From: Chrysomallon squamiferum
Lineage: Eukaryota > Animalia > Mollusca
Assembly: GCA_012295275.1 (NCBI GenBank)
Contig: CM022672.1
Coordinates: forward strand, 2,914,001-2,978,000
Length of the DNA: 64,000 bases
Reading direction: 5' to 3'
A program made the translations under genes and the position numbers. Under the pieces are notes generated by a model that was not told the DNA's origin, ran no database searches, and saw only the letters and a program-made list of their open reading frames with translations. The first letter of the stretch is position 1; each line of letters opens with the position of its first letter. Below, piece after piece: positions 18,396-60,419 of the stretch.

Positions 18396-18741
18396 TTCAG
18401 ATATAGACTGTAAGCCGTGTAGAGTTATCGTTCCTTGTTTTCATGTCGTATACCGCATTGGTTAAGTCTTAGAAGTAGATTTGTGACAGTTAGTAACTAA
18501 TTTATGCAAGAGTTATCTCCTTTTGATGATATTACACACTTTGCCGTAGAGTGAGGGCTAAAATTACTGTATGTGTGTTTTGAAATAGAAAAAAAGAAAA
18601 GAAAAGATAAAAGAAAAAGAAAAACGGGGAAAGTAAGAAAAAAAATTAAATTAAAAAAGAAGGAAAGAATTCTTTTTTATGTAATTGCATATACTTTGCT
18701 CCATTTTTTTTCTTTATAACTATACAAATTTAAACACTTAC

Positions 18742-18886
18742 CTACTAAACGCAGAAACATGGTAAATACGTCGAATAAGAGTAGATGGGAATGTTTTGAA
18801 GATTCGTAGATTGAAACTAATTTATCAGTATATTCAGAACAAAAAAACGTCCACAACCAACAACTTCTACTGTAAAGTGTACTTAC
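18742..18886 (-). other. Candidate cryptic RS-exon (145 nt) after ratchet point 2
   Basis: Begins with GTAAGT and ends at the consensus TAG|GTAAGT (donor hexamer 18741-18736). Confidence 0.5.
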
Positions 18887-18920
18887 CTGAAAAGATAAAG
18901 AAAGAAAAACATTAATTAAA
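18881..18920 (-). other. Candidate recursive splice site (ratchet point 2)
   Basis: Minus strand reads ...TTTAATTAATGTTTTTCTTTCTTTATCTTTTCAG|GTAAGTACA. CAG is at 18889-18887 and GTAAGT at 18886-18881. A branch-point-like TTAAT lies about 25 nt upstream, and there is no minus-strand AG for over 100 nt upstream. Confidence 0.72.
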
Positions 18921-19161
18921 TTATAATAAATGAATAGTAAATGATGAAACACAAACAAAACAGTTAATAATAATAATTATTATTTATTATATAAATCGTG
19001 TCTGTAAATACGATATACATTTACATCTGTGTGTTTGCATTAAAAAAAAAAATGGCTGTGTGAAAATCTAGCCAACCCAGAAACAGTGAGATCATTCAAA
19101 CATTTTATGACATTTTTATTTATTTATTTATTTATTTAACCATTTCAAAGTTATATATATA

Positions 19162-19515
19162 TATATTAATTTACCATATTCAATCATGTTCAATTTGCTT
19201 GAAATTAATATTGCTGAAGAGCGAATTTTTCGTCCGCTATTAGGTGTTGCACAGATGTAAATGTATGAATAAATGAATAAATCTGCATGTTGTTTACAAT
19301 TTAAATTAAAACACCGTACATACGGCTGCTCAAAATACATTCTGACTAATGACTTTACAACAAAACGCCTTGAATTCTATAATGATTTATAATAACTGCT
19401 TCTTTATTTTGACAGAAGCAGCTGTGATTGACATAACGTGTACCTAACCACATCCAGCTCACTTAATCTTTAAAATAATGAATACATTTATTATTATTCT
19501 CTAACGGCTATGCAG
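19162..19515 (+). repeat. Diverged direct repeat, copy 2 (about 350 bp)
   Basis: Colinear with 18078-18395, with substitutions and small indels. Confidence 0.85.
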
Positions 19516-19762
19516 CAGTGTAATGGACCGCAAGTCGTAAAGAATTACCGTTCTTTGTTTTCCCCTCACTTCATATATATATATATGTATGTATGTATGT
19601 ATGTATGTATGTATGTATGTATGTATGTATGTATGTACATATATATATCTATCCATTCATATACCCATTCATTCATCCAGCCCGCACACACAGATAGTCA
19701 GCAGATACAGAAAGACAATCAGAGTTTTCACTGTGTGTTTTTGTATGAATGACGTTTTAGAT

Positions 19763-56089: not shown

Positions 56090-56340
56090 GTTAATTAACT
56101 AAGTATATTGAAGTTTAAAGTTAAAATTAAATAACTAATTAACAAAATATACTGAAGTTTAAAATTAAAATTAAATAGTTAATTAACAAATTGTATTAAA
56201 TTTTATAGTTAAAGTTAGATAATTAATAAACAAAATATATTGAAGTATAAAATTAAAATTAAAATAATTAATTAACAGATTATATATAAAAGATAAAATT
56301 AAATAATTAAACAACAAGGTATATTGAAGTTTAAAGTTAC
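56090..56340. repeat. Degenerate AT-rich minisatellite, unit about 44 bp, about 6 copies
   Basis: Recurring TATATTGAAGTTTAAAATTAAAATTAAATAATTAATTAAC variants. Confidence 0.8.
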
Positions 56341-56719
56341 GATTAAAGCTCATCATTCCAAGTACACAAAAGTGATGTCTTCATTTGGTCTAAAACCCAC
56401 ACCAGACAGGCAACGACTTAGGCTAACCCTGCAGACATCTTGAATTACACTACAGTACGACAGATGTCGCGTTAGTTGCGTGTTTCGTAAATTGGATTGT
56501 GTCAAGTGGTTCTTTATATAACGCATAGTCTGGAAATAAGTGGGTAAACCTACATAGCTGATTCGAGGGCAAATCAGAAATGAAACACACTTCTGAAGCG
56601 CCTCCATTACAAAACCGTAATCATAAGTGGCGTGCGCTTAACCAGTTTTACGAAATGATGGCAGAACAGCGTTTCGTGTCGATATTTCGTGAAACCAAGA
56701 ATGTAACAGTCTCAGTAGC

Positions 56720-57050
56720 CAATTCACGAAATGAAGATGTGGTTGAAAAACAGTTTTTTTTTTACGAAGTAAAGATATATCGGTGAAAAAAAGCGAGTTC
56801 GAAAAATGAAAAATATGCCTATGAAATGAGGCAGTGTACAAAATAAAGATGTGTCAGTGGAAAAGGCTAGTCTACGAAACAAAGATATGTTAGTAAAATA
56901 ATAAGAAAAAAAAGTCATGAAATAAAGAATGTCTCTGAAAAGTGCCAATAACGAATTAAAGATGTATTCGTCGAAAACAATTCTAATAATTTCAAGTAAA
57001 TATTTAAGATGTGTTTATGAAAAGAAATTGCCGAAATGAAACCACGTACA
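56720..57050. repeat. Highly degenerate minisatellite, unit about 37 bp
   Basis: Recurring (A)CGAAATAAAGATGTGT...GAAAA variants. Confidence 0.55.
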
Positions 57051-60000
57051 ACGGCAAGAATGTAACTGAACAACATAACGGTGACTATATATAAATGCAA
57101 GAATATACCCTCTTTAGAACGTAACTATCAAGAAGGTAAAAACATTCAAATCAAAGTCTTTTTCTTATAAAATGTCTGTAGACACTACCATATTCAGAGT
57201 AACTCTTCTCCATACCGTTTACTGGTTTATTCATTTTGATTAGAGCTTAATACTAATTATAATTTGAAACATATTATTGCTTTAGCTCTTATGACATTTA
57301 CTCAAAACGATTACGTCATCACTGATCATTCACAGGAGACGCAGTCTACGAGTATTTACATAACATCCGATCTGTAAAATCTGTACAATGCAAAGGTTAT
57401 TGAATTATGACGTTTATGGATGTTACGTCATGACGTAATAGTCATTGTCGGTGGATACTTGTCAGCTAATAATAATGAACTGTTTCAGCGTCTCATTAAA
57501 TCTGCCTTTTGTTAGTTACAAATATAATTGATGTAGCACGTAGTACAGTCTATCACATTTAACACCTATCAGTAATAGCGTCAAGTAATAATGTTCCACT
57601 GAAGCTAGAAAGTCTTAGATAATGTATTATTAGTTAATTAAAACTCATCACTGCTTGATTAATATAATAAAGCAACAGTAAATGAAACATTAAATATGTT
57701 GTCCAAAAGTTACTGGCAAGTTTATATGATTTTTAAAAAACAAAACAAATACTTAAAACATTTTTTCATAGAAAAGAACACAGACTAGCAAATATTAGAA
57801 AGTTAATCATCGAGATGGGGTAAGCGACATTTTGTTAGAAGCTGAAATAAATGTGACGTGAAAGCTGAAATGAGGTGATTAAATTCATCTTGGTTACTTT
57901 AATTCTTGAAATACTGAGCAGCAGATGGAACGGGAAATACCTCAGTGGGCACAGTTGAGTGAATCGATCTTAATAATATTCGTCCTTCAAACACAGTTTG
58001 CTGTGGTAGAAGAACTAAATCGCCTGACCTATCGCATCAGAGATGAAAACGTGTCCTACTCGTAGAACTGTTCACTTTCAGACTCACAGGATACCGTGTC
58101 TACGCCTCACATTGCTTCAACGTTTTCACCGGACCTGAATCTGTTCCACGGAAATGAGTGAAATTACAGACTGAAATGCTCTTCTGGCTATACAAAAATC
58201 TATAATGGAAGTTTAGACAAGCAGTCATTAGTCAGTTTTTAATGCAAATAATCTCAACGTTCGGGTTATGAAGACCTGTGTCGGCTGGTCCTGTTTGTCC
58301 TATTTTTATCATATTTCTTAAAATCAGTACGAAAAAAACAGAGGAAAGAATTAAAGTTCTCACTGACAAGCTGCGTAATAATGAGAAAACAAAAAAGAGT
58401 AACATTATGAGGTGGAATAGACATTTGAGTTTCCTTTTTTTTTTGCTTTGCTTTCTGGTTTTTAACATCACTGAATTTATGCAGTGACATCAGCGGCAGA
58501 AATAAAGCATACAGTTTTTTCAAGACGACCTCAAACAAAGATGGAATGATGTATGACCACGAATTCGTTCTTTTTTCTTTCTTTTTTTTTTTTCGTACCG
58601 TAATTATCTTGCAATTGACCTGCTTCTGGGTTTGAAAAAGTTGCATTGTGGTATAGAATTTCTTTGCTTCTCTTTCCTCCATATTTTTTTTTTCTTCTTC
58701 TTAATGAATTTTCACTGTATTGAATGGACCTTTGAATAAATATTCGTTTCTGTTTGTATATGGAGAATGTGTGCGTGTATGTGTGTGTGTGTGTGTGTGT
58801 GTGTGTTTTGTTTATGTGTTTGTATGATTAACTGCTTTTATGTGTTTGTACTGAACTGAATGATTAAATACATTTCTTTTGTCTTTTTTTTAAATCATCG
58901 AAGAATTGCAGGAGAATTTTTTTGTAAAAGCCAACGTTAAGGAACAATATATTTCTGAGAAAAACGACCACAGAAATATATTGTTTTCGAACTCAAATAG
59001 GTCAGTAATAAATCTTTCTTTTTTAACCATACATCAAAGAACCGTATATTTCTCACAGCTTTTGAACTGAAGAACCCTATAGTGTTACATAATGGATTGA
59101 AATCAACTGAAAACTTTATGTGTTTTGTTTAAAATACTGTAAGAACCAAATATTTTAGATGACATTTTCAAAGAACATTCTGTATTTGTAAAAGTGTAAT
59201 TCTCAAACAAGCATATATTTTTAAATGTTATAAAAATAATTAATGTTATCAGCTTAATTTTAGATTATAAAACATCCTGTATTGTAGATTATACTCATAA
59301 CAGACTTTTAAAAGAATATTCTACGTTTGTAGAAAGATCAATTTCAAAGAAGTACATATTTTTAAAAAGTATGTAATAAAAAAAATTCACTGTGTTCTTG
59401 AATAATACGTTCAGCTTGAATCCAGACAATACATCTTGTGTTAGATATCGCATTGGCATCGGATATGCATGATACATTAAACTGAATATGGTTATCGAAA
59501 GATATAAGTAGATTACAATACCATCTTAGAGTATAGCATGACAACATTAGACAAGTTATATATTTCATGTCTTATAAAGTATACACTTGAGAAATCTTCA
59601 CATCAGATATATTCCAGTTAAACTAAAACGCTCTCCTGTCTCTCTCTCTCTCTCTCTCTCTCTCTCTCTCTCTCTCTCTCTCTCTCTCTCTCTCTCTCTC
59701 TCTCTCTCTCTCTCTCTCTCTCTCTCTCATTGGCTCTTTAACCCTCTCTTTCTTTTTTCCTTTCTCTCACGTTCTATGGTTTATGTTTGTGTTTTTGCTC
59801 TCACTCCTTTTTCTTTGTCTCTATATCGTTTATCTACAGCTCTCATTCTTCTATCTGTCTGTGTGTGTGTGTGTGTGTCTCAAATAAAGGTCAAAAATAA
59901 TTGCGAGACTGACAAAGCATGTGAAGAAAATGAATATAAACAATCAACTTAATATGTGCAACCTTACGACGCCACTGAATCACCACCATTCTACCGAAAG

Positions 60001-60410
60001 GAATACAAAAAAAAACAGTAAAGGTAAAACGTTCGGAGAACTGATTATGACTCATTACAAATTACGCATTCCAGCACCTAGCCTTGAACCAGAGACCTGT
60101 AGAATGAAGACGGATCTAATCACAACGCTGGTGGAAGCGGATTAAGTCGATCTAACACTGAACAGAGGCAGGTGCGTTCATCTGTTAATACGTTTCCCAA
60201 GCCGCGTGAGAAATGTATAAAACCTACAGCGGCAGTTCAGCAGTCCACGCAGCACAATCGATTTTTTGTCCGCCGTAAATTGTGAAAGTACTGACAAACG
60301 CGGAAATACAAGTAGTATATCAACAACACCGAAATGACGACTTACAAATTCAATGTTTCTGTTTCTCGTAGTAATAATGACAAAAAAAAAAAAAATAAAT
60401 AAAAGGAAAG

Positions 60411-60419
60411 ACTTACCTA
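60411..60419 (-). other. Consensus 5' splice donor; possible end of an upstream (5'UTR or first) exon
   Basis: Minus strand GGACTAG|GTAAGTCTTT. No poly-Y tract precedes it, so it is an ordinary donor. Non-repetitive sequence lies upstream (60420-60520). Confidence 0.4.

Follow-up and report, generated by a model that had tools for sequence, protein, structure and literature searches.

Introduction

The recursive splice sites (ratchet points) of Drosophila show TT at positions −5/−6 in 196 of 197 cases (bioRxiv 10.1101/006163), the segments that they delimit are typically 9–15 kb long (PMC6110457), and the recursive-splicing exons (RS-exons) of the fly measure about 50 nucleotides (nt), with a downstream donor weaker than the recursive one in most of those that are skipped (PMC8605326). 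Here, we describe two sites of similar anatomy, named A and B, on the minus strand of a 64,000-nt stretch of DNA from the mollusc Chrysomallon squamiferum (contig CM022672.1, forward-strand positions 2,914,001 to 2,978,000; hereafter the window, numbered from its first base). A and B are probably recursive splice sites within a very long minus-strand intron: the sequence itself shows the motifs and how far they exceed chance, the donors lying downstream of them and a strand bias, and from these we infer transcription, an upstream donor, and the order and use of each site.

Beyond flies, cryptic RS-exons are described in long neuronal genes of vertebrates (Sibley 2015, as cited in PMC8605326 and PMC6224609). 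Inclusion of poison RS-exons is expected to bring in a stop codon (PMC5126111), and the exon junction complex represses the fused donor of annotated mammalian RS-exons (PMC6224609). Evidence from gene sequences reaches further, as Shepard 2009 reported sense-strand enrichment of ratchet sites in large introns of sea urchin (8.2x), bee (4.0x), beetle (8.0x), mosquito (>>10x) and fly (21.7x), with densities of 0.5–2.2 sites per 100 kb on the sense strand and of at most about 0.1 on the antisense strand (PMC2773006). The preliminary description of the window knew of no characterised case in molluscs, and our literature search, which left most subscription journals outside, found none either; since enrichment on the sense strand was already published for sea urchin and insects, the novelty is lower than that description implied.

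Results

Two fused acceptor–donor sites on the minus strand

Both motifs were located where they had first been described, with the AG ending at 44572 in site A and at 18887 in site B, and GTAAGTACA starting at 44571 and 18886, respectively. The two share the identical 18-mer TCTTTTCAGGTAAGTACA and present TT at −5/−6, a dinucleotide absent from the other five AG/GTRAG sites (the slash marks the splice junction). Branch-point-like TTAAT sequences were found at −33 and −29 of site B. When donor strength was estimated with a crude U1-pairing score of our own, A and B came out as the top two among 3,631 minus-strand GT sites (score 24), the best of the 4,245 plus-strand sites reaching 22. We consider A and B a real, non-random feature.

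The word TTTTCAG corresponds to the acceptor consensus and GTAAGTA to the complement of U1, and the shared 18-mer is, as we read it, mostly splice consensus and not a special shared element. The anatomy of the two sites (TT at −5/−6, top donor scores, downstream donors and depletion of polyadenylation signals) favours the ratchet-point reading of the preliminary description more than that description could tell. The S1 table of PMC6110457 lists fly sites that carry an identical TTTCAGGTAAGT core, and term counts in the 540-row S1 file gave 27 for CAGGTAAGT and 0 for TTTCAGGTAAGTA.

Candidate exons behind both sites, and the case for a retained exon

Each site is followed by a further donor that would close a cryptic exon of 58 nt at A and of 145 nt at B, a feature absent from the preliminary description. 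Such donors were infrequent past random positions: GTRAGT appeared 30–90 nt downstream in 2.3% of the draws (to be compared with A) and AG/GTRAG 30–300 nt downstream in 1.4% (to be compared with B), GTRAGT within 30–300 nt being found in 9.3%. At A, the recursive donor scored 21 vs. 14 for the downstream one (same crude score, assuming an upstream exon that ends in TAG), and splicing from a weaker donor at 44389 instead would lengthen the exon to 182 nt. Some of the transcripts may keep exon B, because its downstream donor equals the recursive one, the two having an identical 9-mer provided that TAG closes the upstream exon, and because it has a single ATG and an open frame 0.

Taken further, B, and perhaps A, could be an ordinary retained exon, either coding or made of 5′ untranslated region plus a start codon, with a silent donor at its front and no recursive cutting in normal tissue. 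We hold this to be unlikely. B does look like a complete exon, with an acceptor of the strongest class and a strong donor; its lone ATG lies at 18760 (ACC-ATG), 19 nt ahead of that donor, frame 0 is open for 48 codons (a stretch with a chance of 5.8% per frame), and constitutive RS-exons number in the hundreds in mammals (PMC6224609). However, two successive exons opening with a perfect GTAAGTA would be very unlikely unless the donor were selected, and the downstream donor of A is weak. Protein searches gave no homologue for the peptide of exon B, which is weak evidence, and the ATG of B (phase 1) and that at 60511 in the candidate upstream exon (phase 2) cannot both read into one next exon.

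Excess over chance

Acceptor-like sites were defined as YAG preceded by at least 75% pyrimidine at −25 to −4 and by no AG in 15 nt. The window contains 32 of them on the plus strand and 38 on the minus strand; GTRAG follows directly in none of the former and in two of the latter, namely A and B only. The Poisson probability of two or more such events was 1.2e-4 for GTAAGT and 3.4e-3 for GTRAG. Two or more strict sites appeared in 0/150 Markov simulations of order 2 and 0/150 of order 4, and two or more loose sites in 0/150 and 1/150, respectively. The earlier estimate of 0.005 chance occurrences per window proved to be of the right order, the simulated mean for the 13-mer being 0.007–0.013.

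These figures also bear on the idea that chance alone produced the motifs in AT-rich, low-complexity DNA, that they were chosen post hoc and that nothing is spliced here. A looser pattern with one mismatch gave three matches vs. 0.94 expected, a count equalled in 7/100 shuffles and hence not significant, and across the approximately 250,000 windows scanned some events of 1e-4 are expected by chance; both points weigh against recursive splicing at A and B and, like the failure to find a host gene or RNA, in favour of chance. The 18-mer was moreover found at 24 places of a metagenome collection, many of them within long open reading frames (ORFs), with no common flanks beyond similarity of the pyrimidine tract. 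As the tests for A and B were defined once the sites were known, and very many windows had been scanned, features not used in picking the sites weigh more. Chance as the whole explanation is nevertheless very unlikely, given the strict tests (P from 1e-4 to 3e-3) and the agreement of features that played no part in the selection: the downstream donors (2.3% and 1.4%), the depletion of polyadenylation signals on the same strand and the 113-nt AG-free zone of B.

Flanks and repeats

Apart from two local repeats, TCTTTTCAGGTAAGTACA was the only complex 18-mer to recur at a distance of over 200 nt once simple sequence repeats in the window had been masked. The flanks of A and B had been described as otherwise unrelated, and they are: local alignment of 390 nt of flank scored 25 downstream and 29 upstream vs. 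a median of 22 for random pairs, 33% and 17% of which, respectively, reached the A/B score. No homology between A and B was detected beyond the shared word in the dispersed-repeat test, and the 18-mer lies outside any recognisable repeat. It is extremely improbable that the 18-mer is the relic of a dispersed repeat or of an old duplication with no current splicing role, even if identity at −9/−8 and +8/+9 slightly exceeds the consensus (a small, unexplained surplus) and B lies between two repeat copies, since random pairs resemble each other as much as the flanks of A and B do, those copies exclude the motif, A has none, and run X1 (below) gives no contigs on A, its depth being heaped on nearby repeat-like patches (a hole that proves little).

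The copies around B and its exon are two direct, AT-rich elements of approximately 370–400 nt (18077–18442 and 19162–19562), 75% identical and 1,085 nt apart, of which a 17-nt piece recurs inverted at 19015–19031.

Strand signals

Strand counts were made for the 92 hexamers with at least 100 occurrences in the masked sequence 1–60400. The two most depleted on the minus strand were ATTAAA (minus:plus 56:88, rank 1/92) and AATAAA (81:116, rank 2/92), both rarer on that strand in all three segments. Long introns avoid polyadenylation signals on the transcribed strand, and the depletion is taken here as an independent hint of minus-strand transcription.

A candidate upstream donor and exon

A plain donor, TAG/GTAAGT, is indeed present upstream (G at 60417, GT at 60416), as had been described, and the spacing of 15.8 and 25.7 kb agrees with the segments computed here (15,845 and 25,685 nt). 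The share of T at +7 to +40 of this donor is 76%, vs. 18–35% at the other six AG/GTRAG sites. On these grounds, the 60417 donor is plausible as the start of the splicing chain.

The candidate exon that it would close contains a single ATG, at 60511, whose frame stays open over 31 codons up to the phase-2 donor; an open stretch of this length occurs by chance at 15% of positions. Its peptide had no homologue in protein searches, and a HMMER match to P0002 (E 2.4e-11) was discarded as a weak match summed over a tandem-repeat protein, with 8/21 identities per unit. Since a start at this ATG would give a phase-2 intron, a retained exon A or B would present TAA at once (frame 1).

Further upstream stand three words that we take to be TATA-, CRE- and CCAAT-like (Table 1). 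Each is common on the minus strand, where TATAAAA is counted 29 times, TGCGTCA 10 times and ATTGG 64 times. A CpG-island promoter suggested by 2-kb bins was rejected, as CpG density was not distinctive once the sequence was masked. A possible acceptor near 60683 would turn the upstream exon into an internal one. In addition, a donor-like CAG/GTAATT was seen at 61242 on the minus strand, upstream of the promoter-like words; the transcription unit might begin further to the right.

Table 1. Positions of the features discussed, in window coordinates
Feature	Position	Strand	Remark
Site A	44564..44604	minus	32-nt AG-free pyrimidine tract (86% pyrimidine), TTTTCAG acceptor, fused donor GTAAGTAC
Site B	18879..19000	minus	113-nt AG-free zone, tract with 91% pyrimidine, TTTTCAG acceptor, fused donor GTAAGTAC
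Candidate cryptic RS-exon A, 58 nt	44514..44571	minus	closed by GTT/GTGAGT (GT 44513)
Candidate RS-exon B, 145 nt	18742..18886	minus	closed by strong TAG/GTAAGT (GT 18741)
Candidate upstream donor TAG/GTAAGT with U-rich tract	60383..60419	minus	76% T at +7 to +40
Candidate upstream exon	60417..60630	minus	5′ end uncertain; 60630 estimated from TATA-like box
Weak promoter-like motifs	60654..60901	minus	TATAAAA 60660, TGCGTCA 60762, ATTGG 60901
Putative first intron segment, 15,845 nt	44572..60416	minus	from coordinates
Putative second intron segment, 25,685 nt	18887..44571	minus	from coordinates
Weaker ratchet-like AAG/GTAAGG (GT 45913) past T-rich tract	45905..45940	minus	1.3 kb upstream of A

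Look-alike sites

The ratchet-like site at 45913 has neither YAG nor TT at −5/−6. Another minus-strand region, 36784–36930, located 7.8 kb past A, holds a 129-nt AG-free, pyrimidine-rich zone that ends in CAG/GTTGGTAT; it may represent a degenerate ratchet point, or simply an acceptor. The same 147 nt (36930–36784) were considered as an exon and rejected, being themselves a pyrimidine tract with a non-consensus donor. On the plus strand, TAG/GTATGT at 25287 (91% pyrimidine) is an example of the background, like a second plus-strand site at 17216 that is taken up in the Discussion.

Comparison with reads, contigs and metagenomes

Words from 60200–61200 were found at a fraction of 0.61 in a sequencing run of unknown kind, X1, and of 0.00 in three RNA contig sets, figures that say nothing on expression. 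Over 43890–45270, X1 behaves like polymorphic DNA and yields no contig across site A, and the three RNA contig sets gave no informative piece. Two haplotype-like contigs of X1 at 44226–44457 differ from the window by 2 and 15 positions in 232 nt, and zero differences were seen over 43890–44255; such a pattern would fit either polymorphism that is high but patchy or a further copy at another place. No difference was present within 44506–44516, around the donor of exon A, which is uninformative alone. A contig of X4 that matched 30 nt of the pyrimidine tract of A with two gaps, ending at 44572 in a low-complexity loose end, was set aside as a chance match or as coming from another locus.

A scan of the metagenome collection with a 30-mer gave 0 matches. 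Among the 24 loci with the 18-mer, the longest match to site B consisted of 25 identical bases (L018:394–420), in an AT-rich contig without a long ORF through the motif, which also has an A/T-rich upstream zone similar to that of B. This match may come from other eukaryotic DNA in which a ratchet-like site arose by convergence.

Setting of the sites in the window

The window has a GC content of 32%, no N and approximately 15% of short tandem repeats, and neither Rfam nor ARAGORN gave any match in it; it has the look of DNA from an animal with a large genome. A minimum of 45 unmasked codons was required of an ORF for the Pfam search, and of the 368 that qualified, 14 gave a match at E ≤ 0.01, none of which was judged credible; among the matches listed, the only one above the curated cut-off was the translation of a microsatellite. 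For ORFs of this size, the earlier statement that no coding exon is recognisable is thus borne out.

A 77-nt dispersed repeat occurs as an inverted pair at 28377–28453 and 41891–41968 (identity 78%), probably fragments of a short mobile element. Small local tandem duplications were also observed at 54955–55114, 56082–56347, 59165–59387 and 46022–46093, comprising a 56-nt pair at 98%, units approximately 88 nt apart, an 80-nt pair and a 24-mer present three times.

Discussion

Recursive splicing at A and B would proceed as follows. A cryptic exon would first be defined at each site through its strong acceptor and the donor downstream, and an upstream exon, possibly that ending at 60417, would be joined to site A. 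This joining would recreate a donor (exon end plus GTAAGTAC), which would outcompete the weak downstream donor of A and carry splicing forward to B. The step would be repeated from B to an acceptor past the left edge of the window, at least 18.9 kb away, and the mRNA would be left without intron sequence.

Besides the loose pattern and the size of the scan, several observations speak against this reading. The RNA contig sets compared around A and 60417 gave no support. Site A lacks a clear branch-point motif within 60 nt, and at B the recursive donor scores 21 vs. 22 for the downstream one, under the same score and TAG assumption as for A. The strand bias of the polyadenylation signals is weaker without masking (146:179 for AATAAA and 72:102 for ATTAAA, minus:plus) and partly tracks a general depletion of A-rich words. 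Other strand signals are flat or opposite, the T-over-A skew being +0.013 and the G-over-C skew −0.012, and GTAAG is counted 34 times on the minus strand vs. 45 on the plus strand. Finally, a look-alike exists on the plus strand, TAG/GTGAGG at 17216, weaker and with 59% pyrimidine.

A more ambitious version, which we find decidedly unlikely, would see, in an invertebrate lineage (possibly lophotrochozoan) from which no recursive splicing is published, a giant first intron removed by a chain of ratchet points in which the second step is a regulated switch at exon B, with two equal donors and a start codon of its own. Were this so, skipping of B would preserve the protein begun in the upstream exon, and keeping B would end the upstream frame at once, giving either a new N-terminus or a degraded message.

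As it stands, the locus is one probable example, known from sequence, of a known mechanism. Use of A and B would mean that recursive splicing with cryptic exons is not confined to flies and vertebrates, which would favour an early-bilaterian origin, and site B, having two donors of equal strength, would lend itself to testing the donor-competition and exon-junction-complex models.

Set against the Drosophila ratchet points (Ubx-RP, kuz, Bx), the two sites share the pyrimidine tract, TT at −5/−6, YAG/GTAAGT and the presence of several sites of one orientation within what would be a single long intron, and site A resembles the cryptic RS-exons of the fly, with a weaker donor about 50 nt on (58 nt here). 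In contrast, the putative segments here (15.8, 25.7 and more than 18.9 kb) exceed the typical 9–15 kb, the one of 25.7 kb being a further point against ratchet points at A and B, and the 145-nt exon B has a donor that equals the recursive one in strength. As in Shepard 2009, the evidence comes from sequence, here on the presumed sense strand, with two sites in 60 kb vs. none on the other strand, by our own criteria and with a scoring different from theirs; unlike the present window, that study used gene annotation and many introns, and included no mollusc or annelid (PMC2773006). The vertebrate RS-exons differ in that here two sites would lie in one intron, in an AT-rich genome that appears non-vertebrate. 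They would nonetheless be similar in the full exon definition at the fused site, in an inclusion set by competition between donors and in the stop codon brought in on inclusion, a pattern that site B fits best.

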